Virus record (IMG/VR): IMGVR_UViG_3300005532_000006
Location: 26,868-90,867 of that record
Source of the DNA: a virus
Reading direction: 5' to 3' (one strand)
DNA length: 64,000 nt
The notes beneath the pieces are model-generated. The model was not told the origin of the DNA and did no database searches. It saw only the letters and a program-made list of their open reading frames with translations. This document shows positions 6,332-64,000 of this stretch, in pieces (position 1 is the stretch's first letter; each line of letters opens with the position of its first letter). The position numbers and the translations under genes are program-made.

Positions 6332-6778
6332 TTACTTGGCCCCCGTAAAGACGTGCTCGAATTTTCTTGCCATTTCTTGCTCGACCGGCTTTTGACTGAG
6401 CTTCATCGCCGGCTCCATTACCGGCCGCGGCGGTATTCCGCGCGACGTGCCTAGTTCCTGAAACAGGTCAATCAGATCATTGCTGCCAACTGAAAATTCG
6501 CGCTCGCCAGCGACCACAGACTCGACGCTGTCGCGGATCGCGCCGCTGCGCAGCAAAGGACTGGGCGAAGGCCAGCCGTGCCGCGCCTTGTCTTCCAAGG
6601 TCGAAGCCGCCAGCCCAGGCCAACCCGCGCCAGCGCCATTGCCGTACAAGCTTTGCGCCCGCTTTTTGACGATCTCGGCGCCCTCTTTGAGCATCCGCCG
6701 CTTGGCCTCCGGCATATGGCCGGCGCAGCGCTGGAGAAACTCGCCGAACTCGGCGAGGCTCTTGAAGGTGCGGGTCAT
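6332..6778 (-). CDS. HK97 gp10-like / virion morphogenesis protein
   Basis: WPGLAAST..K, PLLRSGAIRDS, FQELGTSRGIPPRP motifs. Confidence 0.75.
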   Translation of the reverse strand: MTRTFKSLAEFGEFLQRCAGHMPEAKRRMLKEGAEIVKKRAQSLYGNGAGAGWPGLAASTLEDKARHGWPSPSPLLRSGAIRDSVESVVAGEREFSVGSNDLIDLFQELGTSRGIPPRPVMEPAMKLSQKPVEQEMARKFEHVFTGAK

Positions 6779-6818
6779 CGGTGTCTACTTTTTGGTTTGC
6801 GGCGTAGATGGGGAGGGA

Positions 6819-7196
6819 GTGGTGCGCTACCTCGTTCTCATCGTGATCATTCTGATCTTCATTTTCCCGACCTCGCGCGAAGCCACGCTCGCGGTAATCG
6901 CGGGGCTGATGCACCAAGCAAGGGATCTTGGACAGTCGGGGTTGCCCGAGTGTGACAGTCCTCGGGCGCGCGAAGAAGTTGACGACACGATCTCCCGCGC
7001 TCCCCTAGGGAAGATCTACGGGATATCGGTTATTGAATACGACGCAGTTGAGACAGTTTCCCAATCAGCCTCTTTGGTGGAATGCAAGGCGACAGTTGTG
7101 CTCAACAACGACACGTCGCATCCCGCGACTTACAGCTTCACGCTCAAGGGCGATCAGCAGTTTGTGCGCTTCCGGATCATAGGATTGGGCGACTAA
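6819..7196 (+). CDS. hypothetical membrane-anchored protein
   Basis: GGAGG RBS, GTG start, N-terminal TM segment, LPECDS..C motif. Confidence 0.55.
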   Translation: MVRYLVLIVIILIFIFPTSREATLAVIAGLMHQARDLGQSGLPECDSPRAREEVDDTISRAPLGKIYGISVIEYDAVETVSQSASLVECKATVVLNNDTSHPATYSFTLKGDQQFVRFRIIGLGD

Positions 7197-7198
7197 CC

Positions 7199-7417
7199 AT
7201 GCAAACCATGAAGCAGCGGCGCGGCCACTTCAGGCGCCCAGTTATCCTGGCGCTTCTATCCATATTGCTCACGCTCAGCCCCATGGCAGACAGCGCCGCT
7301 CGCGGTCATCGCGGCGGCATCTACGGCTTCCGCTCCAGCCCGTGCAAAAGCTCATCGTGCTGGTCGAAGCACCCGAGCGGGTCGTGGACGCACCCGCTGA
7401 CGCGGCGGAGGCGGTAG
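7199..7417 (+). CDS. small basic exported protein
   Basis: signal-peptide-like N-terminus, Cys pair. Confidence 0.4.
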   Translation: MQTMKQRRGHFRRPVILALLSILLTLSPMADSAARGHRGGIYGFRSSPCKSSSCWSKHPSGSWTHPLTRRRR

Positions 7418-7419
7418 GA

Positions 7420-7764
7420 TCAGGCCATCGCCAGTTGGCGGTCGGTCTCCGGCTCCGCCTCCCGGTCCTCGAATTCGATTACCAGCCGCTTGCCGACTGC
7501 GAGGGCCGCACGGTCGAGCGTATCGATTGTTATGCCGGCACCGTTGGGGTCGAGAAGCCTGTCTACGGCGGTGCGGCTGGTGTGCATGCGGCGGGCCATC
7601 TCGGCCTTCGTGATGCCCGATAGCCGGATCCAGTCTGCCACCATGTAGGCGATCACCTTGCGCCACGCCTGATCGACCACGACTGCATCAATCCCCTCTT
7701 CGACGAGGAAATCGTCGAAATCGCTGCCGATATGAGGATTTGTCTTTCCAGTGTTTGCGGTCAT
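7420..7764 (-). CDS. XRE-family HTH antitoxin (HigA-like)
   Basis: NPHIGSDFDDFLVEEG..ITKAEMARRMHTSRTAVDRLLDP; ATGA overlap with toxin gene. Confidence 0.85.
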   Translation of the reverse strand: MTANTGKTNPHIGSDFDDFLVEEGIDAVVVDQAWRKVIAYMVADWIRLSGITKAEMARRMHTSRTAVDRLLDPNGAGITIDTLDRAALAVGKRLVIEFEDREAEPETDRQLAMA

Positions 7765-8120
7765 TTTGCTTTTTCCATTCGGCGTTTGCGCGCACGCGCC
7801 AGGTTGATGTCCGATTGAGGGGTTTTCTGCTGCTTCTTGATGAAGCCATGCAACAGCAGCATGCGACCCTCGTAGACGCTGAAGATCACCCGCGCGATGC
7901 GCGTCGGCAACTCGGTCCGCACCTCCCATAGCCCATTGCCCAGAGGCCGGCACAGCGGCAACCCGACTGGCCACCCGTACTCTGCCGCCTTGATGTCTCT
8001 CCCGATCGCAATCCGCTCATTCTCAGGCAAACCCTTGAGCCAATCCCTTACCGGCTCCGCTCCCGCCGCGGTCCTGTAGAACGAGACCGGGAGCTTTTTC
8101 CCTGACCCAGGCTGTACCAA
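7761..8120 (-). CDS. RelE/ParE-superfamily toxin (gp49/HigB-like)
   Basis: FYRTAAGAEPVRDWL..GLWEVRT..RVIF..LLHGFIKKQQKTP; start (TTG 8120) uncertain. Confidence 0.85.
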   Translation of the reverse strand: MVQPGSGKKLPVSFYRTAAGAEPVRDWLKGLPENERIAIGRDIKAAEYGWPVGLPLCRPLGNGLWEVRTELPTRIARVIFSVYEGRMLLLHGFIKKQQKTPQSDINLARARKRRMEKAK

Positions 8121-8127
8121 ATTTGGT
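8116..8127. promoter_or_regulatory. palindromic operator of the TA operon
   Basis: perfect palindrome ACCAAATTTGGT at the toxin 5' end. Confidence 0.5.
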
Positions 8128-8194
8128 GCGCCAGTGCCAGGGATTAAATCGCTCCGCCCAGATAAAGGTTCCGTTACCGGCGAGCTCTTCGTCC

Positions 8195-8398
8195 TCACTC
8201 GCTCGCTTTCCCTCGCGGCTTCGGCCGGTGCACCGGTATCTCGTCCCGCGACAGCCCGCGCTCGATAAGTTGGCGGATCGCTTCCGCCTCTGTGGGTATG
8301 CGGTGCGCGAACCGGAAATCCTCTATCGCCTTCGCCTGCTCCGTCGTCAGTGCGACGAGCTTCTTGACGGGGTAAATCACTGCTGAGTAGCGCGCCAT
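8195..8398 (-). CDS. ribbon-helix-helix (CopG/Arc-like) regulator
   Basis: KKLVALTTEQAKAIEDFRFAHRIPTEAEAIRQLIERGL; divergent from the 8534 operon. Confidence 0.7.
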   Translation of the reverse strand: MARYSAVIYPVKKLVALTTEQAKAIEDFRFAHRIPTEAEAIRQLIERGLSRDEIPVHRPKPRGKASE

Positions 8399-8418
8399 CG
8401 CCTGGCAAAAATAGTCGA

Positions 8419-8474
8419 TATTGACGCTATTGACAAGAGCGCCTATAGGCTATATGTTCAATGCGTTCAATAGC
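8419..8474 (+). promoter_or_regulatory. sigma70 promoter with operator repeats driving 8534-10800
   Basis: TTGACA(8430)-17-TATGTT(8453); tandem TATTGAC; inverted GCTATTGA/TCAATAGC; palindrome GCCTATAGGC at 8441. Confidence 0.7.
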
Positions 8475-8533
8475 GGCCCGACCGAGAGCTGGAACCTCCC
8501 GACCGGGCCTAACCCCAGCCAAGGAGATGGCCC

Positions 8534-8866
8534 ATGGCTACGGCTACTGCCACACTTACCACATCCTCTCTGCACAATCTGCCCGTTGGCGACATCGTCG
8601 ATGAACTCGGCGCACTGAAAGCCAGTATCGCGGACCTCGAAGCCCGCGAGAAGCGGCTGCGCGACGAGCTGGTCGCCCGCGGCGTCGGTGAGGCCGAGGG
8701 TGCGCTGTTCCGCGCCACCGTCTCCGAGGCGATCCGTTGGACGCTCGACAGTTCCTTGGTCAAGGAGCGGATGGGCCACGATTGGTGGAACCAACACTGC
8801 CGCACTGCCAGCGTGACGACGGTCAAGGTCTGCGCCCGCACCGGCTCCTTCAAGGCGGCGGCGTGA
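8534..8866 (+). CDS. hypothetical phage protein (coiled-coil N-terminus)
   Basis: AAGGAG RBS; 110 aa; first gene of the operon. Confidence 0.75.
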   Translation: MATATATLTTSSLHNLPVGDIVDELGALKASIADLEAREKRLRDELVARGVGEAEGALFRATVSEAIRWTLDSSLVKERMGHDWWNQHCRTASVTTVKVCARTGSFKAAA

Positions 8867-8867
8867 G

Positions 8868-9410
8868 ATGGCCGCGACCAATCCCGCTGCCGGCGTTCGC
8901 CGGCGCAAGCCGCGCGCACGCCTCTACCGGCGGATCGATCTGCGCCGCCGGCGGCGGCGCGTTCATCCCCCGACGATCACCGCGGAAGCCGCACTGCATC
9001 TGCTGATGGAAGAGGCGGATATCTTCGCAGTCGGCCGCAGCCGCTATCTCGTTGCGTGGATCGATGCCGACGTACTGGAAACCCTGATCGTCGCCGCGGG
9101 CGCCACCGAAGACCGCGAAGAGAACGGCGACGACGAGCCGGATAGCGATCGCGAGCCGGATGTGGACGACGAGCCATCGGTCGGAGCCGATGATCTCGAA
9201 AGCGATGGTCTCGACGACGAGGGCGGCGAACGGACCGACGAAGACGTGCTGCCTTCTCCAAGACCGCGGCCGCCCATCCTCGACGGCGGTCTCGTCGAAG
9301 TCAGCTACGACCCCGTGAACGGCCAGAAGGTTTTCACTGTCGTCCGCGCGTTGCGGGTCGATCTCGCCAGCCCCGAGCCGCCGCTCGTCGCACCGACAGG
9401 AGCACGCTAA
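8868..9410 (+). CDS. hypothetical protein with Arg-rich N-terminus and acidic tract
   Basis: 180 aa; coupled to both neighbours (TGAgATG, TAATG). Confidence 0.65.
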   Translation: MAATNPAAGVRRRKPRARLYRRIDLRRRRRRVHPPTITAEAALHLLMEEADIFAVGRSRYLVAWIDADVLETLIVAAGATEDREENGDDEPDSDREPDVDDEPSVGADDLESDGLDDEGGERTDEDVLPSPRPRPPILDGGLVEVSYDPVNGQKVFTVVRALRVDLASPEPPLVAPTGAR

Positions 9411-10057
9411 TGGCAAAGAGCACAAAAGCGAAGGATGAGGCACCAAGCGCGATCGTCGTGATCGAACCGCCGAAGTTCCAGCGGGCCGTGATCCGGATCG
9501 TGGGCACGTCGCCCTACGTGCAGAATAAATTCAGCCAGAAGGCGCGCGAGCAGATGGAGGCGAAACAGCGCGCCGGATCGCAGGCGACAAAGGGCCGCAA
9601 ACGCGAGCCCAAGGACTTCGACGCGGTCTACGAAGGGGCGCTGCACGTCAGCCGCGAGGGTTGGTACGGCATTCCGGCGCCCGCCTTCCGCAACGCGATG
9701 ATCTCCGCGTGCCGGGTCGTTGGATTTCGCATGACGCTCGCAAAGCTGAGCGTCTTCATTGAGGCCGATGGGTTCGACCGTGACGACGGTACTCCCCTGG
9801 TCAAGATCGAGGGTGCTCCAAGGCCCTTTCATATGACTGCCCGTAACGAGACGGGTGTAGCGGACGTTCGGGTGCGGCCGATCTGGGATGACTGGTCCGC
9901 CAATGTGCGGGTACGCTGGGACGCGGATCAGTTCTCCGCGACAGACATCATGAACCTGCTGGCGCGCGCCGGCATGCAGGTCGGCGTTGGCGAAGGTCGG
10001 CCGGACAGCAGAAACAGCAACGGCCTCGGTTGGGGCCTTTGGGAGGTGGCAGGATGA
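9410..10057 (+). CDS. stand-alone Cas7/RAMP-like protein
   Basis: RAMP-like motif order: IRIVGTSPY, YGIPAPAFRNAMISA, RVRPIWDDW, and C-terminal G-rich loop AGMQVGVGEGRP..GLGWGLWEV. Confidence 0.7.
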   Translation: MAKSTKAKDEAPSAIVVIEPPKFQRAVIRIVGTSPYVQNKFSQKAREQMEAKQRAGSQATKGRKREPKDFDAVYEGALHVSREGWYGIPAPAFRNAMISACRVVGFRMTLAKLSVFIEADGFDRDDGTPLVKIEGAPRPFHMTARNETGVADVRVRPIWDDWSANVRVRWDADQFSATDIMNLLARAGMQVGVGEGRPDSRNSNGLGWGLWEVAG

Positions 10058-10521
10058 GAACCAAATCGACAGTCGCCGGGGAACTTCTGGCGCTCGCGTC
10101 GCAGATCAACACCGGCGACAAATTGCAGGCGCAACAGGTAGTCGATTGGGCGCGCTCGCACCCGAAATCGGCGCTCTACGCTGCCCTGTGTCCGCTTGGC
10201 ACCGACGGGAAGTGGGATCTTGTCAAGGCCGCCGAAGAATATTTGTTGCATCAGGCCCGGCGGCTCATTGCGGTCCACATTGTGGACGAAGCGGGAGCGC
10301 GCAAGGTCGTATCACTCAGCGTTGACCGCGTCTCTGGCGGCGGCTATCGGCGCGTCAAAGACGTGCTGATGGATGTGGAACTGACCGCCGTCATGCTCAA
10401 GGACGCGCTGGCAGAACTTCAGAGGGTGCGGCTGAAGTACGAGACGGTTCAGGCTCTCGCCGGTGTGTGGCGCGAACTGGACCGGGTCAAAGAGCAGTAC
10501 CGCAACGAGGACGCTGCTTAG
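10054..10521 (+). CDS. accessory protein of the RAMP-repeat locus
   Basis: ATGA overlap with the RAMP gene; helical 155 aa; VVDWAR..P.SALY..AAEEYLLHQARRLI. Confidence 0.75.
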   Translation: MRTKSTVAGELLALASQINTGDKLQAQQVVDWARSHPKSALYAALCPLGTDGKWDLVKAAEEYLLHQARRLIAVHIVDEAGARKVVSLSVDRVSGGGYRRVKDVLMDVELTAVMLKDALAELQRVRLKYETVQALAGVWRELDRVKEQYRNEDAA

Positions 10522-42729: not shown

Positions 42730-43883
42730 GCCGCCTCGATACCGCCATCGCGGCGGCGGCCGGACGAATCGCCGCGCCGCCGGCGCCTATCGACGTGCGG
42801 GAAATCCTCTACCGCGGGGTGCGCATCGTCGCGCACTACCGCGGCAAGCGGCCCCTCGGCTACGGCCCCGTGCGGGAGTTCCGCTCGCGGCGGCAGGCGG
42901 CGCTGGCGGTGCTGCTCGCGCGGCCGAAGGTGCGCACCTTGCCGGGCGGCATCGCCGTTCGCCGGCGAGGGCGGTGGGGCCGGCCGGTCTGGGCATGCGA
43001 TGGCGACTGGTCCGCATCCAGCTACAGCGAGATCGCGCGGGCGGCCGCGATACCGTATTGGCTCGACCGCGCGGCGACAGGGGGTATCGCGGTACCGGAC
43101 GCGCTGCACAACCTCGTGCGGCGCCGCCGCCGCGAGATCGAGACGCTGCGCAAGGAGCGGGCGGCGCGCAAAGCCGTCGCCCCGCGCCAGCGCAGGGCCA
43201 GCGGCCGTTACCGCGGCGTGCCAGTCACGGCGCGTCTGTGCCCAGACGGGCGCGTCGAGTGGGCATGCGGAGAGGCCGCCGCCAAAACCGCGCGCAAAGC
43301 GGTGCGCCTGATACTGGCGGCCCGCCGCGTGACCCGCGACATCGATGGGGTGACGCTCAGGCGCGTCGTTTCGCTCGACGGCGGCCCGCGGATCGTCGGC
43401 TGGATGGGGCCCGGGAACCCCACCACGCTGCCGTTTGCCGAGGCGGCGCGGCGGGCGCGGGCCATCGCGCCCGATCCGCAGGCGCCGCGCAACCTCGGCT
43501 GGCGAGTGTGGTACTGGTCCGGCCAGCGCCTCGTCTCGCCGCAGCAGCGGACGGCCTGGCCGGAGGACGGCATCCTGCGGGCGGAAAATTGGTCCGACGC
43601 CGCGGCGGTGCGCGGCGAGGCCGGCATTCATGCGCGCCGGCTGCCGCGCGACTGGCGGCTGGCAGATCCGTTCTACGACCCCGAGCTCGCCACGTACGGC
43701 ATCAGCCGCAACTCGGTGGTCGGCGTCGTCGAGGGCTGGGGCCGCATGCTGTACGGCTCCGAGGGCTGGCGCGCCGAGTATGCGCGCATCCTCGCGGTGC
43801 GGGCGCCGAGCACGGAAATCGGCCTTGAGATCGAGCGGGCCTACCCCTCGATCGAGGTCTACTACGACGATCGGGAGGCGTGA
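42726..43883 (+). CDS. hypothetical protein, C-terminal GWRxW..GIHA..GWRAE domain
   Basis: ATGA overlap, GGAGG RBS; 385 aa. Confidence 0.65.
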   Translation: MSRLDTAIAAAAGRIAAPPAPIDVREILYRGVRIVAHYRGKRPLGYGPVREFRSRRQAALAVLLARPKVRTLPGGIAVRRRGRWGRPVWACDGDWSASSYSEIARAAAIPYWLDRAATGGIAVPDALHNLVRRRRREIETLRKERAARKAVAPRQRRASGRYRGVPVTARLCPDGRVEWACGEAAAKTARKAVRLILAARRVTRDIDGVTLRRVVSLDGGPRIVGWMGPGNPTTLPFAEAARRARAIAPDPQAPRNLGWRVWYWSGQRLVSPQQRTAWPEDGILRAENWSDAAAVRGEAGIHARRLPRDWRLADPFYDPELATYGISRNSVVGVVEGWGRMLYGSEGWRAEYARILAVRAPSTEIGLEIERAYPSIEVYYDDREA

Positions 43884-43886
43884 GAG

Positions 43887-44024
43887 ATGAAGATCGGGAT
43901 CCCAGAGCAACAGGTGATCGAGGTGCCGGCGCCGGTGGCGGTGCCGGCGATCCCGCCGGCCCGCAAGGAGCCGCGCCGCGCGCCCGCCAGGGAGCCGGCC
44001 CGCAAGGAGCCGGTGCCGGCATGA
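43887..44024 (+). CDS. 45-aa Pro-rich peptide
   Basis: MKIGIPEQQVIEVPAPVAVP..EPVPA; stop overlaps the next ATG. Confidence 0.55.
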   Translation: MKIGIPEQQVIEVPAPVAVPAIPPARKEPRRAPAREPARKEPVPA

Positions 44025-44476
44025 CCGACAAGCGCATCCGGATCGTCGCCGGGGCGCCGCTCAAGGCGGCGCTACGCGCGACGGCCGGCGAGGAATACCC
44101 GACCGGCCGGGTCAACTCCATCGCCGAGCGTTATCTCGACATTGTCGAGGAGGCGCGCCCCGCCTTCGCGCGCGCCGAGTGGTGCGCGGTCTGCGACGCC
44201 AACAACGGCGCCGGCTCGTTCGACGAGCTGGAGATCGCCGGGGCGCCGGAATGGATGGTGCTCGCGGCCAACGTCGCCGATACCCCCGGCCTCGGAGCCA
44301 AGTGGGATATCGACCAGCGCGATCTGGTGCGGCGGCTCGACGGGCTGCCGCGCGCCGGCAAGATCGCCGTGCTCGAAACCGCGCAGCGCTTCTGGGCGCT
44401 GACGGAATTGCCGACGGAGGAGGCGCTCGACCTCGCCACCAGCCACCCGGCGACGTGGCCGGAGATTGATCGGTGA
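44021..44476 (+). CDS. hypothetical protein
   Basis: AAGGAG RBS; MTDKRIRI..EWCAVCDANNG. Confidence 0.65.
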   Translation: MTDKRIRIVAGAPLKAALRATAGEEYPTGRVNSIAERYLDIVEEARPAFARAEWCAVCDANNGAGSFDELEIAGAPEWMVLAANVADTPGLGAKWDIDQRDLVRRLDGLPRAGKIAVLETAQRFWALTELPTEEALDLATSHPATWPEIDR

Positions 44477-44709
44477 GACGCCCCGGCCGCGCCGCGCGCC
44501 GGACCCTGATGCGCGCGCTGCTGGCGCGCGACAACGGCCGCTGCCGGCTCTGCGGCCGTGCGGTCGCGCCGGGAGCGCCGGCGCCGGAGGACCGCGCGAC
44601 GATCGGCCATATCTGGCCGCACGCGCTCGGCGGCGAGGCGAGCCTCGCCAACACGCGGATTGAGTGCGCGGCGTGCAACGAGGTGCACGGCCTGCTGCCC
44701 CGATGGTAA
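44473..44709 (+). CDS. HNH endonuclease-like protein
   Basis: RDNGRCRLCG..TIGHIWPHALGG..NTRIECAACNEVH. Confidence 0.8.
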   Translation: MRRPGRAARRTLMRALLARDNGRCRLCGRAVAPGAPAPEDRATIGHIWPHALGGEASLANTRIECAACNEVHGLLPRW

Positions 44710-45758
44710 GCGGCATCATCCCCTCGCCGCGGCTGCGGCTTGAGGAATGGGGCCGGGCGATCCCCGGCCTCTGGCACGCGGTCGAAGCGCAGCGCGCCGA
44801 ACGGCGGCCGGACAGCGTCGAGTGGCCGGCGCCGGTGTTCCTGCCGCTGGAGCGCGCCGGTGCCGCGACCCTGGCGGCCATCCTCGCCGCGGGGCAGCGC
44901 CCGCCGGACGGTCCCGCCGAGCTGTCGGCGCCGGCCTGCACGACGCAGTGCCTCGCCGCCTGGCGCATGACACAGGGCATCTACCGCATCGACCCGACGC
45001 TGTACGAGGCGCTGATCGCGACGCCGATCGCCGGCGACATTCCGGCCGACGTGCTGCTCTACCTGCCGGAGTGGTGCGTCTATATCGAGACGCCCGGCAT
45101 GACGGCACCCGCCGCGGATCGCGAGCCGCTGCCGGTGGCGGGGCTGTGGTACTGGCTCGATAGCGGCCCCGGCCGCGAGATGGCGCTGTGCATCGGCATC
45201 GATCTCGGGCGGCGGCCGCCGATCCCGGTGCAGCATGTCCCGCTGATCGGCACGCTCGACGCGGCGCTCAATGCGACCGTGCGGGAATGGGCCGATGCGG
45301 TCGAGCGCGGCAACGCGGCGCGGCCGCCGCCACCCGGCTACCGGGAGGCGGCCCGCGCTTGGCTGCCGGCCGCACTGTCGCTCGTGCTGTATCTGTGCAG
45401 CCGCGCGGCCGACATCGACGGCCGGCCCGGCAACCCGGCCGCGACGCGGACGCGACGCGGCGAGCGGCTGTTCCCGGCCAGCGGGCCGCGGCGCTGGGAG
45501 GTCGGCGTCAGGCTCGGCGCCGCGCTGCGGGCCGCCTGGGACGCCGCCGCGGAAAGCAGCGGCTCGGACGCAACCGGCGCCCGCCGCCCGGTGCGCCCGC
45601 ACGTGCGCGGCGCGCACTGGCACACCTACCTGCGCGGGCCGCGCAAGGACGTGCCGGCGGACAGCCGCCCGCGCGAGCTGCGCTGGCTGCCGCCGATCCC
45701 GGTCGCGGTCGAGGATTACGATGCGCTCCCGGCGGTGGTTCGGCCGGTAAAACCATGA
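44703..45758 (+). CDS. AcrVA2/FinQ-family-like protein
   Basis: AAWRMTQGIYRID, LPEWCVYIE, LVLYLCS, RPHVRGAHWHTY..G, RWLPPIPV. Confidence 0.7.
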   Translation: MVSGIIPSPRLRLEEWGRAIPGLWHAVEAQRAERRPDSVEWPAPVFLPLERAGAATLAAILAAGQRPPDGPAELSAPACTTQCLAAWRMTQGIYRIDPTLYEALIATPIAGDIPADVLLYLPEWCVYIETPGMTAPAADREPLPVAGLWYWLDSGPGREMALCIGIDLGRRPPIPVQHVPLIGTLDAALNATVREWADAVERGNAARPPPPGYREAARAWLPAALSLVLYLCSRAADIDGRPGNPAATRTRRGERLFPASGPRRWEVGVRLGAALRAAWDAAAESSGSDATGARRPVRPHVRGAHWHTYLRGPRKDVPADSRPRELRWLPPIPVAVEDYDALPAVVRPVKP

Positions 45759-45836: not shown

Positions 45837-46550
45837 TCACGCGATGAGCACCGCGATCGTCAATTCGACGCTGCCGCGGTGCGGCGCCAGCGCCGCTTCC
45901 AGCGCGGCGGTAGCGGCGAGGCCGAGGCGATCCACCAGCTGCGCCTGTAACCACAATCCATAGAACGCGGCCCGCTTCGTCGCGCCGGCGGCGATTGCGT
46001 CATCGACCGCGGCGATGGCCCGCTCGACCCGCCGCAGATCGAATATCGTCCAGCCGGAAACGTCGTAATCGGGGACGTGCAGGTAGAGGCCGGGCGCGCC
46101 GCAGGTCGCCAGCTGCGCCCGCGGCCACAGCCGCGGTTTCGGATCGCTCGTCAGCACGCCGGTCATCGGCGCGTCGCCGCCGGCCCGGCCGATCTCGCCG
46201 AGGACATGGCGCCACCGCGGTCGGCCCTCGATCTCCTGCGCGATCGTCGGCCACCAGCCGCGATCCCCCACCACGAGACAGCCGCGGTGCGTGCGTTTCG
46301 GATCGCCGTAGAACCAGGCGCAGGCGCGGCAGGCATGCGTGCCCCACCGCGCGAACTCGCCGTGGCCGCTGAAGGTGTCGTTGTCGATCCCGGCGACGCC
46401 GCGGCGCGGCGCGAACGGCACGCCCTCGGCAATCTCGGCGCCGCAGGTGCAGCAGCGGCCGGCCGCCGGCTCGAATTGATATTGCGACCCCGTCTTGCCT
46501 TCGGGCGACCGGCTACCAAAGCCACGCCACATCAGCTCTGCGGCGGTCAA
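45837..46550 (-). CDS. csf1: Csf1 (type IV Cas8-like large subunit)
   Basis: two CxxC (CCTCG, CRAC), TFS, DPKPRLW; GGAGG RBS with TTG start; in operon with Csf2/Csf3. Confidence 0.7.
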   Translation of the reverse strand: MTAAELMWRGFGSRSPEGKTGSQYQFEPAAGRCCTCGAEIAEGVPFAPRRGVAGIDNDTFSGHGEFARWGTHACRACAWFYGDPKRTHRGCLVVGDRGWWPTIAQEIEGRPRWRHVLGEIGRAGGDAPMTGVLTSDPKPRLWPRAQLATCGAPGLYLHVPDYDVSGWTIFDLRRVERAIAAVDDAIAAGATKRAAFYGLWLQAQLVDRLGLAATAALEAALAPHRGSVELTIAVLIA

Positions 46551-46633
46551 CGGCCCTTGCCTCCCTCGCCACCCCCACCGCCGCTACCGCCGCCACCGCC
46601 GCCGCCCTGTCGAGGCCCGCTCGATCGCGCCAT
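46547..46633 (-). CDS. 28-aa glycine-rich peptide
   Basis: GGAGG RBS; MARSSGPRQGGGGGGGSGGGGGEGGKGR; TGA overlaps the csf1 start. Confidence 0.55.
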   Translation of the reverse strand: MARSSGPRQGGGGGGGSGGGGGEGGKGR

Positions 46634-46647
46634 TCTTTCGTCCTCCG

Positions 46648-47427
46648 TTACGACCACCGGCTCATCTCGGGAAAAATCTCGATCAGCCGCATCCACACAT
46701 CCGGCCACATATGGCGCAACTCGGCCCAGCGTCCATAACGCGTCGAGGTGTCACCGAGCAGTGTGCCTGTGCGCCTTCGTTCCGGGCTGGTTTCGCCCTC
46801 CCGCAGATAAATCTCGCTGAGCGGCAGATTGTGCGCCAGTGCGTAGGCCATAACGTCTGCGCCAGTCCACCACGCCAAGGGGCAGGCGATCACTGCGCCG
46901 TCGCGGCGCGTCCGGATCGGCCCATAGCGCCGCATCGACATTGCTCGGGGCCGGCTCTCATCCGCGCGCAGACCGAGCAGCGTCACGGGGTAGCCGCGCT
47001 CTCGTATTGCCGCTGCCGGCTCGGTGATCAGGATGCGTTTCCAGTCGCTGCCGGCCCAATGCCATTCGCCCGGCAGCTGCTCCGGTCCGCTGTAGCCGAG
47101 ACCGCCGATCAACTTGAGCATCTCGACGATCGACCGCTCCGGATAGACGGTCTCGATCCGCCAACTGCGCTGCCGTAGCGCCTCGATCACTGCCAGCGCG
47201 GCGGGATGCTCGGCTCCGCTATCGATAAAAAATCCCTCTACGTCATTGCCAAATTCGTGGCGCGCGATGTCACTCAGCACCAGCGAATCCTTGCCGCCGG
47301 AGATCATCAGAGCCGGACGACCCAGCCGGGCCGCCTCGCGCAGCAGGCGTCTGGTTTCGGCGAGGCGCCGCCCATATGCCACGCTCTGCGCATGCGCGAG
47401 ATAGCCCGCTCGCGTCAATGCGTCCAT
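46648..47427 (-). CDS. CysH/PAPS-reductase-like protein of type IV-B loci
   Basis: PP-loop ISGGKDS, DSGAEHP, LGLRADESRPR, PLAWWT..DV.AY. Confidence 0.9.
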   Translation of the reverse strand: MDALTRAGYLAHAQSVAYGRRLAETRRLLREAARLGRPALMISGGKDSLVLSDIARHEFGNDVEGFFIDSGAEHPAALAVIEALRQRSWRIETVYPERSIVEMLKLIGGLGYSGPEQLPGEWHWAGSDWKRILITEPAAAIRERGYPVTLLGLRADESRPRAMSMRRYGPIRTRRDGAVIACPLAWWTGADVMAYALAHNLPLSEIYLREGETSPERRRTGTLLGDTSTRYGRWAELRHMWPDVWMRLIEIFPEMSRWS

Positions 47428-47428
47428 A

Positions 47429-48214
47429 TCAGCCCTGCCGCAGTGCCGTGCGCACCGCCGCCATCGACGCGGGATGCCAGTAGGGCGGCGTCCAGCCGAG
47501 GCGCGGCGACAGGCGTTCGGGTGCCACGGCAAGGCCTTTGGCGGCGAGATAGGCCACCGGGACGTTGCGGTGATCAAGAATATAGTCGGCGTCGATTTCC
47601 GGCGCCGGCTCGATCTGCCACGACAGCACACGGCCGCGCCCGTGCGCGCCTTTGCGGCCGACATGCCAGACGCGGTCGAGCAGCATCGTCACCGCATTGC
47701 GGTCGCCGATGCACCAGCCCTCGACGGCCGCCGTGACGGTGACCGCCAACGGCATGCGCACGTCCTTGTAGCGCCCCGCTTTTGTCGGCGCGGTCTGCCG
47801 CACGGCCAGATCGGCCCGCTCGCTCGGGTAGCGCGAGTGCAGATACGCGCTGCCCCGGGAAGCTGCACCGATCGGGCGCAGATCGCTCGCCAGCCACAGC
47901 GGATCGCCCGCCGGAGATGCCCACGCCAATGCCAGCGGCAGCGGGATAACGTAGCGCTCGATGCCGTCGTCCACGACCGAGGCCCACAGCGAAAGACAGG
48001 CCGCACTCAGGAGGCCGTCGAGATGCAGCGCCCCATCCAGCGGAGCGATGTAGCCGCTGGCGAGCGTCCCGACGATGTGGAGCGGTTCTGCCGGCAGGTG
48101 CTGCCAGCGCCGCCACAACCCGCGCCAGCAGCGTTTCCCGTCACCGTATTCGCGCTCCCGGCACGCGGTCGGGAACCGCTCCACCGGCAGGTCAAGAATA
48201 GGTGCGGGGGTCAT
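47429..48214 (-). CDS. csf3: Csf3 (Cas5-like RAMP)
   Basis: LHLDGLL, IPLPL, AGRYK..RMP, WCIGD, G-rich loop HVGRKGAHGRGRV, PPYWHP. Confidence 0.8.
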   Translation of the reverse strand: MTPAPILDLPVERFPTACREREYGDGKRCWRGLWRRWQHLPAEPLHIVGTLASGYIAPLDGALHLDGLLSAACLSLWASVVDDGIERYVIPLPLALAWASPAGDPLWLASDLRPIGAASRGSAYLHSRYPSERADLAVRQTAPTKAGRYKDVRMPLAVTVTAAVEGWCIGDRNAVTMLLDRVWHVGRKGAHGRGRVLSWQIEPAPEIDADYILDHRNVPVAYLAAKGLAVAPERLSPRLGWTPPYWHPASMAAVRTALRQG

Positions 48215-49059
48215 GCCGCGACGGCGCAGAGCGTCTTGTCGGTCCCGAGCGATCCCGACAGGATGCCCTCGCGCATCGCGGCGCGATGCTCGTCGATATG
48301 CGCATCGTAGGCAGCGGGTTCCGGGGCGGGACCGAGCCATCCCAGCCGGCATCGGCCACGGCCCTGCCGCGCCTGGCCGCCGATGTAGCCGTCCTATTGC
48401 GCGAGGCCGCGCCCGGCCGCGGCGGCCGTCGCCGGTGGTGACCAGTCGTCGAGCATCAGTTCGACGGCGATGCGAACGCCCGCCGCCAGCACCTCGTACG
48501 TGTAGAGCATCTGGTTGCCGTGCGACTCGCCGCCGGTACCGCGCGTGCGGGTCTCCTCGCCGATCATGTCATAGGCGCTCGCGGTGCGCGCCTGACCTGC
48601 GAGTTCCGGAAACAGCGCCTCGATCGGCGCGAGGTATTCCTCGGCGACGATCCACGCGGCGAGGCGCAGCCGCGAGCGCGGGATGATGAACGTATCGACG
48701 GCACCCCCGAGCAGGTCGAGCGAAGGGTAGAGCCGCTTGACCATATGCCCGAGCGCGGTTTCGTCGCCGGGGGCGCGGCCCGATCCCATGTTGCCGCCGG
48801 AGTAGAGGAGGTTGAGCACCGGACGCGGCACGACACCGGAGCCGATGGCGAGTGTCGTAAGTAGGTGATCGGCCAGCGGCGTACGCAACAGCACCGAGCG
48901 CAGCGCGTTCTCGCTGACGTGCGGCGTGTAGACGAGGCGGCCGTTGCGGTGCGCCGGCTGGGTCATGAACAACCGCACGTTGGTCGTGTTGTCGATGCCG
49001 GTGCGGGTGTCGAAATGCGCCACCGGCGTCAGGGTTTCGAGCACAAAACGGTAGCGCAT
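48211..49059 (-). pseudogene. csf2: Csf2 (Cas7-like backbone) interrupted by an in-frame TAG at 48394-48396
   Basis: ETLTPVAH, PHVSENALRSVLLR, LYSGG, PSLDLLGG, QMLYTYE; after TAG the frame continues DGYIGGQARQGRG.. to a TGA overlapping the csf3 ATG. Confidence 0.8.
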
Positions 49060-49514
49060 CAGGCCGCCTCCCCCATTGGATCGCTTGCCGCGACTATCGG
49101 CTCCGCCAGGTCGAATACATCGATCGGATCGGCGAGCGGCACCGTCTGTCCGGCAGATGCCGATGCCGCCGTCGCAATGCGGCCGCGCCGCGCCAGGTGG
49201 CGGGCGATCATGACGCAGCTCTGCGAGCGCTCCGCCAGCGCCCGCAGCACCTCGGGATCGTCGTCCTGCGGCGCGATCAGCGCCAGCACCGCGTCGTCCC
49301 ACTGGCTCGGGCCGATCGTCCACTGCATCGTCCGCGCGGAGAGGTCCCAGCAGCGCCGCACGGTATGGCTGCGCTCGGCGGCAAGCCGCAGCCGCGCCTC
49401 CAGGACGCCGTAGCGCCGCGCGCCGCCGAACAGGCCCTCCCCGCCGTGCATGCGGATCATCAGGCCAACCAGCGCGACCGCTCGTCGCTCAGCCGGCGTT
49501 AGATCATCGATCAT
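49059..49514 (-). CDS. Cas11-like small subunit
   Basis: 151 aa helical protein directly upstream of csf2 (TGATG); call is positional. Confidence 0.55.
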
Positions 49515-49531: not shown

Positions 49532-50628
<1,097 letters not shown>

Positions 50629-50629
<1 letters not shown>

Positions 50630-51081
50630 CAGTCGGCCACGTTCCTGATTTCGGCGGGGCTGTATTCGCGCTGCGCCGGACGGCGGTATTTGCCGGCAGG
50701 GATCGCGTGCGCGGTATGCTCCTCGTGGACGAGCGGCGACCACGGCCGCTTCGGTATGACGACGCCGGCGACCTCGTCAATGTCGGCGAGCGCGAACTTG
50801 ACGCGGCCCTGCCGTTCTGTCGTCACCGTCACCGAGGTCTCGTCGCGCTCGACGATGACACCGCCGACGGGGCCGGAGAAGTCGCCGGCGACATCGAGGT
50901 ATTGCTCACCGTCATCCGTCCGCAGCAGTACCGCGCCCTCGGTTTTGATCGCGTGCGCATGGCCCGTCACCTCGCCGTAGGCCAGCACGACTCGGCCGCG
51001 GTCGCGCGGCTGTTTCGCCGCCTTCTTTGGGATGGCCTCAACAGCCACAAGAAAAACATCGCCTTGTCGGTACATCGTCAT
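50629..51081 (-). CDS. conserved partner of DUF6745-like proteins
   Basis: YRQGDV..LAYGEVTGHAH..HEEH..QREYSP. Confidence 0.75.
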
Positions 51082-52821: not shown

Positions 52822-53190
52822 TCATTCCGCCGCCTCCCGCATCTCCACCGTCTCCGGCAGCGCCGCCACGAAATCCCCGAACGCCACAAGCCGATGCACC
52901 GGCATCCGGCCGCACAGCTTGAGGAGCCGTCGCGCGTCTTCACTGAGCGGAAGTGGTTCGATGAACGCCTCCGCTGGCGTGATTCCGACGGCATGGGCGA
53001 AGCGGAGGAGCTGGCCCGCGGTCATCCGCTCGTCGCCGGCCTCGACCTTTTGCCAGAAGCTAGGCGAGCAGCCGGCGTTTTCGGCGGCGTCGGCGATCGT
53101 CATGCCGCGCAGCAGCCGCCAGCGCCTCAGGTTGCGCCCGATCGCGCGGTCGATGTCGCCGATGTGCGGGTTGCCGCGGCGGCCGGTCAT
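52822..53190 (-). CDS. XRE-family HTH regulator
   Basis: IGRNLRRWRLLRGMT..A..G.S..QKVEAG. Confidence 0.8.
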   Translation of the reverse strand: MTGRRGNPHIGDIDRAIGRNLRRWRLLRGMTIADAAENAGCSPSFWQKVEAGDERMTAGQLLRFAHAVGITPAEAFIEPLPLSEDARRLLKLCGRMPVHRLVAFGDFVAALPETVEMREAAE

Positions 53191-55820
53191 GCCGCTTCGT
53201 CCTGGTCGGGCGCCTCTAACAGCGCGAACAGGGTCGGCGTCTCAGCCTCGGCCTCGGCGGCCTTGAGGTGGGCGATGCCATCGCGCCAGTAATCCTCGGC
53301 GAGCTCGATCCCGATTCCCTTGCGGCCGAGCTTCACCGCGCAGTAGGGCACGCTCATGATGCCGCCGAACGGGTCCAGTACGGTCTCGCCCGGCATCGAT
53401 AACTGGACGATCAGGCGCTCGACGATATCGAGCTGGAGCGCGCAAAGATGTAGCTCCCTGCCCTTCGCATACTGCAATGCGTTCAAGGTCCGCATGCGGG
53501 TGACATCGGTCCACACGTCCGGATGCCACGAGTGCGGCGGCAGCAGCATGAAGGTGGAGGGCAAGAGGCCTTCGTGATCGAGTTCTTCGGCTACCGCGAC
53601 ATGGCTGGCGAAGTCGTAGAGCGCATCGGCCGAACGGTTGCGCCACATCCGGTAGAGCTGCCGGTGCAACTCCTCCCGCTTGACCCCGCCGCCGATCAGC
53701 GCCGCAAGCTCAGCCGAGGAGATCAGCCGGTCACCCGATGAGCGGGCATAGCCGTGCGCATCCATTTGCCAGCGCGCCCGGCTGTAGCCGGTGCCGGGAA
53801 CGGGGTGCCGCCAGTTGCTGTCCGGATCGAACGGCGCCGGAACGCCATGGTCGTCGCACAGGGGCTTTTCCTTGACGACCGGCACGTCGGCGTAGCCATC
53901 CGACAGGTCGCTCGGCGGCTTGCGGAACAGCAGCACGTATTCGGGCACGCCGCAGCCCATGCGGCTGCCGTCCTTGCACTGTTCGGTCCACCCCAGCCGG
54001 TAGGTCTGGTTGTTCTCGCGCACGACATCGGTCGTGATCGTCTTCATGCCGAGAAAGGCGAACCCGTGCCGGCGATAGTGGAAGATCGCCTCGGCGTGGA
54101 ACGGGTTCAGGGTTTGGAACCCGAGGCCGGAGAGGCCGCCCGGCACGATGCGGTCCTTGACGTGCACCGCCATGACCCGGCCGGGCCGCAATACCCGCAG
54201 CAACTCCGGCGACAGGAAATCCATCTGCCGCCAGAAATGGTCGTTGTCGTCGGTGTGCCCGAAATCGCGGAAGCTCGGGGTATACTCGTATTGGGTCGCG
54301 AAGGGGACCGAAGTCACGATGAGGTCGACGCTGTCGCTCGCCACCCGCCGGGCTTCGTCGACGCAATCGTTGTTGATCGCGGTCCAGCGCTGTCCACTCG
54401 CCTCTTTCCGCTCGACCTCCATCGACCGGGACATAGCGCGCGACAACGCGGCGCCAGTCAGACCGTACTCCTGGACGATGCGGCGCATCATCCCGACGAG
54501 TTCGTCGTGGCGCGCCCACTTAGCTTCGAGGCTGCGGCGGATTTCCCGCTCGGCCTCAGTGTAGATCAGGTCGATGCGGACCGGCTTCGTTTGCAGGAAG
54601 CGCTTGATCCTGTGCACTGCTTGCACGAAGTCGTGGAACTTGAATCCGATGCCGAGGAAGATCGCCCAGGCGCAGTGGCGCTGGAAATTGCATCCCGCAC
54701 CCGCGAGAGATGGTTTAGCCGCAAGCTCTGCAATCCGGCCGTCGGAGAAGTCGATGACCCGCCGCTCCCTCTCGTCGAGGTCCTGGCTGCCGTAGATCGT
54801 CACCGCTTCTGGGATCGCCGCTTCGATCGCGCGGCGTTCGGCTTCCAGGTCGTGCCAGATCAGCCGGTGCGCGCCGGGGTCGAGCGCGCGTAGTTCGAGG
54901 AGCTTTTCGATGCGCGCATTAAGGCTGTCGCGCTTCTCGGCCGAGGCCTGCTGCACGCCGATCGCGGCGTTCCGCAAGAGGCGCAGCTGGCCGTCCCGCT
55001 CGGCGCCGGCCGCTTTGTGATCGCTTGGCAATTCGTGCCAGTGGACCTTAAGCGGCGGCAGGTCGTAGTCTTCGTCGGAATAACCGAGATCGCTTGGCCG
55101 GTCGACGAACAGCGCCCAAGAAGCAACCCACAGCCAGAATTCTTGTTGCTTGTGAGGGTAGAGCGTCAGCCGGTCGGCCCGCTCGCTGTCGCGCTTGAAA
55201 AACCTGGTCTTTGCCTGCCCGATGTCCATAACACCGAGGAACCCGGCATAGGCCAGCAGTTCGATGTATTCGTTCGGGCTCGGGGTAGCGGTAGCGACAA
55301 AGCGGTAGCTGCCGCTCCCTTCGAACAGCCCCATCAAGGTGCGGAAGGTGAGCGACCCGCCAAACCCCCGAAGTACAGCGGCTTCGTCCAGACTGACGGC
55401 GGTGAACCGCCGCGGATCGAGACGACCGTCGCGCACGCTCTCGTAGTTGGTCAGGTAGAGCCAGTGATCGCCGTCGCACTCCTCGTTGCGGCGGATGAAC
55501 TTCGGCTCGACCCCGATGAGGCCAGCGTCGCGTCGAAACTCCTGGCGCACCCCGAGGGGGCACACGATGAGGCAGTCACCGCCCTCGCGCTCGTGCACAA
55601 GGCGCAAAATCTCCAACTGCGTGACGCTCTTTCCGAGGCCGAAGCTGGCAAACAGCGCCGCGCGGCCGAGCCGGCAGGCCCAGATCACCATGTCGCGCTG
55701 GTGCGGCTTCAGCGCCGGCGACACCTCTTCAGGCCGCACGGCAAAGCCGCGCACAGGCGCCACGGCCGCCTTCGCCGCGAGGAATTCGCGGTAGGGATCG
55801 GGCGCGGCCTGGTCAAACAT
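53187..55820 (-). CDS. SNF2-like helicase / DNA amino-methyltransferase fusion
   Basis: GLGKS, LDEAA, TATPSPN, QAVHRIKRF; IVTSVPF and VLDPFGGIMS methyltransferase motifs. Confidence 0.85.
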   Translation of the reverse strand: MFDQAAPDPYREFLAAKAAVAPVRGFAVRPEEVSPALKPHQRDMVIWACRLGRAALFASFGLGKSVTQLEILRLVHEREGGDCLIVCPLGVRQEFRRDAGLIGVEPKFIRRNEECDGDHWLYLTNYESVRDGRLDPRRFTAVSLDEAAVLRGFGGSLTFRTLMGLFEGSGSYRFVATATPSPNEYIELLAYAGFLGVMDIGQAKTRFFKRDSERADRLTLYPHKQQEFWLWVASWALFVDRPSDLGYSDEDYDLPPLKVHWHELPSDHKAAGAERDGQLRLLRNAAIGVQQASAEKRDSLNARIEKLLELRALDPGAHRLIWHDLEAERRAIEAAIPEAVTIYGSQDLDERERRVIDFSDGRIAELAAKPSLAGAGCNFQRHCAWAIFLGIGFKFHDFVQAVHRIKRFLQTKPVRIDLIYTEAEREIRRSLEAKWARHDELVGMMRRIVQEYGLTGAALSRAMSRSMEVERKEASGQRWTAINNDCVDEARRVASDSVDLIVTSVPFATQYEYTPSFRDFGHTDDNDHFWRQMDFLSPELLRVLRPGRVMAVHVKDRIVPGGLSGLGFQTLNPFHAEAIFHYRRHGFAFLGMKTITTDVVRENNQTYRLGWTEQCKDGSRMGCGVPEYVLLFRKPPSDLSDGYADVPVVKEKPLCDDHGVPAPFDPDSNWRHPVPGTGYSRARWQMDAHGYARSSGDRLISSAELAALIGGGVKREELHRQLYRMWRNRSADALYDFASHVAVAEELDHEGLLPSTFMLLPPHSWHPDVWTDVTRMRTLNALQYAKGRELHLCALQLDIVERLIVQLSMPGETVLDPFGGIMSVPYCAVKLGRKGIGIELAEDYWRDGIAHLKAAEAEAETPTLFALLEAPDQDEAA

Positions 55821-63454: not shown

Positions 63455-64000
63455 TGGCCGCCCCCCTCACCGCCGAACAACTCGCGCTGATCGAGCGCGT
63501 CCATCTCGACGAGGGCACGCACGCCAATTTCGAGGCCGGCGTCTGCGCGATGGAGCTGGTCAGCTACCTCGCCGGCGAGCCGTTCTCCGACCATCCGCAA
63601 TGCGTCTGTCCGGTGCTCGGCGCCTTCGTGCGGTCGTGGAACGACGCGCTGCCGGACGACGAGCGCGACGCGCTGCTGAAGCCGCTTCTGCCGAGGCTGA
63701 TCGGCACGCGCGGCAGTGATGCTCTTGCCGAACGCCGCGCCCTGATGGCTGCCGATTGGCTGGTGCGCGTGCATACGCCAGCGTGGCTACGGCTCGCGAA
63801 GCTCAATGCCCAAGCCGACGCGCTGGCTAACCTGCCCGAAATCACGTCGATGGCGCAGATACCGTCCATCCGCGGGCCGATTGAGGCGGCGCAGCGTGAC
63901 GCGGCCGCCGCCTGGGACGCCGCCAGGACCGCCGCCAGGACCGCCGCCTGGGACGCCGCCTGGGACGCCGCCGGGGACGCCGCCTGGGACGCCGCCAGGG
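63454..64000 (+). CDS. hypothetical protein with AAWD/AART repeats, runs off window
   Basis: CAMELVSYLAGEPFSDHPQCVCPVL..WND; 12-bp repeats from 63904. Confidence 0.7.
   Translation, partial: MAAPLTAEQLALIERVHLDEGTHANFEAGVCAMELVSYLAGEPFSDHPQCVCPVLGAFVRSWNDALPDDERDALLKPLLPRLIGTRGSDALAERRALMAADWLVRVHTPAWLRLAKLNAQADALANLPEITSMAQIPSIRGPIEAAQRDAAAAWDAARTAARTAAWDAAWDAAGDAAWDAAR

Follow-up and report, generated by a model that had tools for sequence, protein, structure and literature searches.

The DNA examined here (the window, 64,000 nucleotides) comprises bases 26868-90867 of the 90,867-bp IMG/VR virus record IMGVR_UViG_3300005532_000006. Between positions 45837 and 49514 it contains a CRISPR-Cas cassette of subtype IV-B in which csf2, the gene for the backbone subunit, is interrupted by an in-frame amber codon. 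All of the defining features of the subtype were found, and the cassette is a genuine IV-B locus. It is likely that this is a phage accessory cassette in which a dispensable conflict gene has very recently lost its function through csf2, rather than an active system expressed early in infection. The record is of the linear class, is about 83% complete as estimated by CheckV, and has a G+C content of 62-75% (about 66%); because of this richness in G+C, reading frames were picked by third-position G+C. The carrier is a tailed phage, encoding a major head protein, portal, large terminase, tail sheath, serine recombinase and ParB-like protein.

The preliminary description of the window had called the locus an array-less IV-B-like Cas operon and proposed a search with type IV profiles. 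This search gave matches to PADLOC type IV models for Csf3 (Csf3_0_IV, 3e-29), Csf2 (typeIV_Cas7, 5e-16) and Csf1 (Csf1_0_IV, 3.3e-7). Csf3 was also matched by TIGR03116 at 7.7e-15, with a score under the curated cut-off of 140 bits for that model. When a profile of 14 Csf2 orthologues (A1) was compared with the PDB, the sole match was the Csf2 of entry 7JHY (E 2.5e-8), the IV-B complex of Mycobacterium sp. JS623. Csf1 contains the conserved cysteines C33, C36, C74 and C77, and the only significant Foldseek matches of its AlphaFold model (predicted local distance difference test, pLDDT, 90.8) were type IV-A Csf1 chains (7xg1_A, E 2.4e-5, probability 1.0; 8rc3_G, E 6.4e-4); the Csf1 sequence profile gave E 0.44 against the PDB. 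The CysH-like protein was matched by PF01507 (2.2e-17) and retains the SGGKDS PP-loop and the LGLRADES motif. It has a single cysteine, located outside any C-terminal ECGLH-type motif, and the catalytic C-terminal cysteine is absent. Retention of the PP-loop with loss of the C-terminal cysteine is the signature of CasCysH (PMC8175902).

The 151-residue Cas11 candidate had no match in the hidden Markov model (HMM) libraries, and Foldseek alone gave no significant match for its model. A profile of 12 orthologues (A2) ranked the Cas11 of 7JHY first in the PDB (E 3e-3), followed by Cas11c. Superposition of the AlphaFold2 model (pLDDT 78.6) on chain 7jhy_g gave a Z score of 11.1 and a root-mean-square deviation of 2.6 Å over 113 residues, while the next chain reached a Z score of 3.9. 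A cas11 homologue lies directly upstream of csf2 in every relative that covers that position. The Cas assignments were in this way confirmed by HMM, profile or fold, and the array-less IV-B-like reading was borne out. A Cas11 small subunit is present in subtypes IV-B and IV-C and absent in IV-A; the cassette contains Cas11 and is without csf4/dinG, cas6 or an array, and does not conform to IV-A.

The csf2 frame is broken by a TAG at positions 48394-48396, after which the same frame stays open for 61 conserved codons to a TGA that overlaps the start of csf3. The preliminary description had held csf2 to be in need of repair, which was borne out by alignment: the stop replaces Trp222 (TGG), a tryptophan in 13 of 13 aligned homologues of about 280 residues, through a change of one base. 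It stands one codon ahead of the invariant sequence DGYIGGQxRQGRG, which is the glycine-rich loop of RAMP proteins and aligns to the Csf2 of 7JHY as well. A word-indexed search found more than 338 Csf2 homologues of about 280 residues that span 99% of the read-through frame. A frameshift was rejected, the break being an in-frame stop. Reassignment of TAG was also rejected, as TAG ends 20 of the 70 confident genes, often with further stops following. A phage-encoded amber suppressor was rejected as well, there being no CUA anticodon among the 29 tRNAs found by ARAGORN at default settings, clustered at record positions 4582-9104 (minus strand, 17.8-22.3 kb before the window), or in the list obtained at relaxed thresholds. 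Since TAG is a normal stop in this genome and no suppressor tRNA was found, the cassette has probably been recently disabled.

The exact shortened Csf2 of 221 residues is on record from two contigs, with NCBI, IMG, Logan and ENA as sources, which makes a one-off assembly slip unlikely. The ratio of identity after the stop to identity before it was 0.84, compared to 0.91 +/- 0.085 among intact pairs. The 61 downstream codons are no more diverged than expected, indicating that the stop, if real, is recent.

Several observations weigh against a disabled cassette. The various sources of the 221-residue product may share the same reads, and the TAG, known from assembled sequences, may be a sequencing error or a minority allele. 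No damage is seen in the 3' part of csf2 or in any of the other genes, a state also compatible with a functional gene that contains an error or is suppressed in a host-dependent manner. Identical cassette proteins are also on record from a contig of 146,364 bp, longer than the incomplete record studied here, and no experiment ties any IV-B cassette to a function (PMC13676074, September 2026). A fully functional cassette, in which the TAG stems from a sequencing or consensus error, belongs to a minority allele or is suppressed or read through in the host, is nevertheless considered rather unlikely. The single-base difference from TGG, the normal divergence of the downstream codons with every invariant motif residue kept, and the four intact partner genes are consistent with it. 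The recovery of the same product from two contigs and several collections, the common use of TAG as a genuine stop and the absence of a CUA-anticodon tRNA from the phage cluster argue for a real and unsuppressed stop.

The cassette consists of six minus-strand open reading frames that exactly fill the interval, with overlaps or tiny gaps between neighbours and with frames backed by third-position G+C analysis (Table 1). The cas11/csf2 junction is a TGATG overlap, the csf3 start overlaps the true csf2 stop as ATGA, and the cysH-like gene begins 1 nucleotide past the csf3 stop. Upstream in the same orientation are genes for a DUF6745 protein, an HU-like DNA-binding protein, a DUF1376/phrog_9327 replication initiator, a helix-turn-helix regulator and a helicase-methylase fusion (53187-55820), a phage replication-type protein. 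The cassette lies at the 3', distal end of the phage replication operon, and the tight coupling and co-orientation with replication genes given in the preliminary description agree with these overlaps and gene identities. No sigma-70 or terminator consensus was found on the cassette strand from 53.5 to 45.5 kb.

The position of the cassette differs among relatives. Its neighbours are a minor head protein and the head protease in locus L015, tail genes and the endolysin in L017, and an HNH gene/methylase and a tyrosine integrase in L024, so the early-operon site is not a family trait and the cassette behaves as a mobile accessory element. Of the early expression previously proposed, the replication-operon position stands for the window and does not extend to the family.

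It is improbable that the cassette is active, being expressed at an early stage of the lytic cycle, and sequesters host CRISPR RNAs (crRNAs) or small RNAs as an anti-CRISPR RNA sponge. In favour of this, the cassette follows directly on the replication genes in the same orientation and is separated from them by no promoter or terminator consensus, the RNA bound by the solved IV-B complex is heterogeneous, and a sponge has been put forward in print as a hypothesis (PMC7937560, PMC7038947). However, csf2 is cut off ahead of the glycine-rich loop, the late or lysogeny-side positions of the relatives' cassettes indicate that early timing is not conserved, and the strictly linked CysH-like enzyme is left without a role; a sponge is disfavoured on these three grounds. 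The survey of IV-B systems itself deems a complex acting as an anti-CRISPR unlikely (PMC7038947), and the same survey is cited by Zhou et al. (PMC7937560) as showing that IV-B and other CRISPR systems co-occur negatively.

To examine the distribution of the lineage, 1.84 billion representatives were searched in full with an HMM. Csf2 clusters at 50% identity numbered 788 at E<=1e-3, 303 at <=1e-10 and 99 at <=1e-30. Loci were collected from IMG/VR with the Csf2 profile (13, one of them also found with Csf3), with Csf3 alone (three more distant loci) and from metagenomes (18, all through alignment A4, single-sequence patterns giving none), together with at least two small contigs of metagenome-assembled genomes. 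The G+C content of those loci for which it was computed was 42-69%. A tblastn search with the Csf2 of the lineage gave no match in 50,697 GenBank phages or 72,556 plasmids, and BLASTN with the whole locus gave no useful result in phages or plasmids. The IV-B lineage of the window is large, phage-borne and mostly uncultured.

Most relatives have the canonical order csf1-cas11-csf2-csf3-cysH. In the window and its closest group (L003/L009, L022-L025), in which Csf1, Csf2 and Csf3 are 63-69% identical, csf1 has been relocated to the end, and the Csf1 proteins of this subclade (about 20 sequences ending in ...IAAVIA) are without a C-terminal tail. Identity of the CysH-like protein to its counterpart in L003 (1924-2652) is only about 30%, which suggests from these alignments that the enzyme gene was replaced or is evolving much faster inside the cassette. 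Sister phage clades (L007-L021, L028 and L030) encode five orthologous proteins with Csf2 42-58% identical, have no array in the loci scanned and mostly show the canonical order. In several of them Csf1 carries a disordered tail of 30-45 residues, rich in K, E, P and A, that ends in QLGLF, QLGLL or RLF/RLL. The pentapeptide QLGLF matches the beta-clamp motif QLxLF and is identical to the sequence through which E. coli Pol II binds the sliding clamp. In another, large sister clade (L006:3252-4718 and proteins P0173-P0260, about 440-520 residues) a Cas11-like domain is inserted after the first strand of Csf2; hhalign placed the Cas11 profile at residues about 70-205 (E 2e-13 and 6e-19) and Cas7 from about residue 220. 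The window subclade differs from the sister clades in having csf1 last and no Csf1 tail.

The closest characterised system is the IV-B locus of the Mycobacterium sp. JS623 megaplasmid (PDB 7JHY; PMC7937560), which shares all five components, Csf1, Cas11, Csf2, Csf3 and the CysH-like protein, and likewise lacks an array, Cas6, a helicase and adaptation genes. Both the profile of Csf2 and the fold of Cas11 from the window match this entry specifically. Differences between the two are the carrier, which is a plasmid in JS623 and a phage in the window, the gene order (csf1-cas11-csf2-csf3 in JS623, cas11-csf2-csf3-cysH-csf1 in the window), the nonsense codon in the window csf2, and a divergence so great that tblastn obtained no Csf2 match among the plasmids.

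IV-B has been described in the archaeal virus family Fuxiviridae of Bathyarchaeia, with a mini-array (PMC10848311), and in prophages (PMC7038947), and type IV occurs in prophages and some lytic phages according to work cited in PMC10848311. These virus-borne cassettes share with the window the effector module and the CysH-like gene inside a viral genome, and have been proposed to serve counter-defence or conflict among mobile elements (PMC10848311, PMC7038947). In contrast to them, the window derives from a tailed bacteriophage with about 66% G+C, has no mini-array, and belongs to a lineage found in this analysis only in metagenomic viral contigs and in none of the GenBank phage records searched. 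Phage-borne IV-B is already in print and the cassette is a further member; particular to the window are the csf1-last order, the tail-less Csf1, the site in the replication operon and the natural csf2 nonsense allele.

The solved JS623 complex consists of a Csf2 filament on heterogeneous RNA of about 55-60 nucleotides, and co-expressed crRNAs were not loaded (PMC7937560). By homology with it, an intact cassette would assemble a Csf2 filament and a Cas11 minor filament on RNA of about 55-60 nucleotides, capped by Csf3 and Csf1. For the CysH-like partner, ATP alpha-hydrolysis, AMPylation or the production of a signal has been proposed as the activity (PMC8175902, PMC13676074). As it is without the redox cysteine, the enzyme is predicted to cleave ATP at its alpha phosphate; its most likely action would be the adenylation, or some other modification, of a nucleic acid or small molecule at the complex. 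On the favoured reading, the RNA-scaffolded complex would place the PP-loop enzyme on this substrate in a phage-host or phage-phage conflict. The TGG to TAG change would deprive the backbone subunit of its last 61 residues, the C-terminal fifth, including the glycine-rich loop. Ribosomes would also fail to reach the ATGA junction, so that translational coupling to csf3 would be lost. Because of these two losses the cassette of the window is most likely a fresh null allele, and the filament is probably not made at all by this copy.

It is also conceivable, at low probability, that the phage IV-B lineage works at the replication fork and not as an RNA sponge, the copy in the window again being a null allele. 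In that case the RNA-scaffolded Csf filament would deliver the ATP-splitting CysH-like enzyme to DNA undergoing replication, or to RNA primers, either those of the phage or those of a competitor. This proposal draws on the QLGLF tails of Csf1 in the sister clades and on the site of the cassette inside the replication operon; the tail has been lost in the window subclade.

The preliminary description had reported no array, cas6 or dinG in the window, and this held for the whole record. Searches of the record for csf4/dinG (TIGR03117), cas6 (TIGR01877) and cas1 (PF01867) found none; models specific to Csf5 and RecD were not applied. When the complete 90,867 bp were scanned with k-mers for spaced repeats, coding tandem repeats alone were revealed and nothing CRISPR-like, and Rfam gave zero matches in the window. 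Likewise, no CRISPR-like repeats were present in 19 related loci (L003-L021), each scanned up to about 8 kb from the match. A guided system that uses borrowed crRNAs, its array and perhaps cas6 being encoded by the host or by phage sequence beyond the record, is very improbable: the incomplete record and the 146-kb contig with the same proteins leave room for one, Csf3 and Csf1 are conserved and their counterparts bind crRNA handles in other class 1 systems, and the archaeal virus IV-B has its mini-array (PMC10848311), but CRISPR-like repeats, cas6 and cas1 are absent where searched, and crRNAs co-expressed with the Mycobacterium complex were not taken up by it (PMC7937560).

Two further candidates did not withstand analysis. 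The array previously suggested at about 10.5 kb of the window is a degenerate GGC-rich repeat tract of irregular spacing, and the open reading frames beside it, including the supposed second Cas7-like system at 9410-10521, had no PADLOC or Pfam match. An apparent 60-nucleotide repeat in L010 was rejected as an array, as it codes for a pentapeptide-repeat protein; the gene (5725-6102, minus strand) has a 15-nucleotide periodicity with at least 16 copies and is situated upstream of csf1 at a distance of about 0.8 kb.

Among the widespread subtypes of CRISPR-Cas, IV-B alone has no known function, and its biological role was still described as unclear in September 2026 (PMC13676074). The locus adds little alone, being one more array-less IV-B cassette that is probably dead. 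Its value is the context, a phage-borne lineage of 788 clusters unmatched at the BLAST level in cultured-phage and plasmid collections, which hops among early, late and lysogeny-side positions. The size of the lineage, its absence from these collections and the hopping argue for a self-contained accessory module that would be selected in phage conflicts yet dispensable. Natural variants are offered for experiments by the tail-bearing Csf1 proteins, the Cas11-in-Csf2 fusions and the natural csf2 null.

Table 1. Features of the IV-B cassette (window coordinates) and positions of tail-bearing Csf1 genes in related loci (coordinates of each locus).
Feature	Coordinates	Strand	Evidence
cas11 (type IV-B small subunit), 151 aa	49059..49514	-	Orthologue profile and AlphaFold2 model against 7JHY
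csf2 (Cas7 backbone), 282 codons, amber-interrupted	48211..49059	-	PADLOC, profile, homologues
Premature TAG in csf2, codon 222	48394..48396	-	Alignment; near-invariant Trp (TGG) replaced
csf3 (Cas5), 261 aa	47429..48214	-	PADLOC and TIGR03116
CysH-like (CasCysH) PP-loop enzyme, 259 aa	46648..47427	-	PF01507 and motifs
Gly-rich open reading frame of 28 codons bridging cysH and csf1	46547..46633	-	Shine-Dalgarno site; not conserved
csf1 (Cas8-like large subunit), 237 aa, four-Cys zinc finger, without C-terminal tail	45837..46550	-	PADLOC and model
Tail-bearing Csf1, L007	357-1178
Tail-bearing Csf1, L010	6864-7655
Tail-bearing Csf1, L012	6843-7640
Tail-bearing Csf1, L014	6831-7625
Tail-bearing Csf1, L015	6843-7643
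Tail-bearing Csf1, L017	6907-7665
Tail-bearing Csf1, L018	1737-2474
Tail-bearing Csf1, proteins P0125, P0127, P0128, P0147

The peptide gene noted earlier between cysH and csf1 exists as a 28-codon glycine-rich open reading frame with a GGAGGA Shine-Dalgarno sequence 8 nucleotides upstream, but is missing from the closest relatives L003 and L025. It contains a 9-nucleotide repeat, its own TGA overlaps the TTG start of csf1, and it is a possible translational coupler. Structured RNA was unsupported both in the cysH-csf1 spacer and downstream of csf1 (fold z-scores of +0.29 and +1.35).

The DUF6745 gene just upstream of cas11 (49532-50743, minus strand) contains 21 tandem 9-nucleotide units at 50254-50444 that code for ADW/ARD tripeptides. 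On the other side of the cassette a plus-strand gene (44664-45758; 364 residues, phrog_6160 family) converges on csf1, and next to it is a plus-strand gene for a protein of 198 residues (43880-44476). Homologues of the two are present in the close relative L024 (17255-18313 and 13991-14437; 70% and 55% identity) a few kb off the cassette and in the opposite orientation, and these genes may form a conserved accessory neighbourhood. In the same relative the region 4759-6578 comprises an intact cas11 (4696-5211) followed by a 1.3-kb insert with a 276-codon open reading frame of no assigned family, after which the last 40 cas11 codons are repeated just before csf2; this looks like an insertion with a duplicated target.

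A 12/36-nucleotide tandem repeat occupies window positions 63906-64000, at the very end of the record, and is probably why the assembly stops there. At the opposite end of the window, a minus-strand open reading frame of 351 codons (741-1796) ends in TAG and another (141-740) runs on in the same frame. Third-position G+C is equally high in both, and these are probably two adjacent genes.

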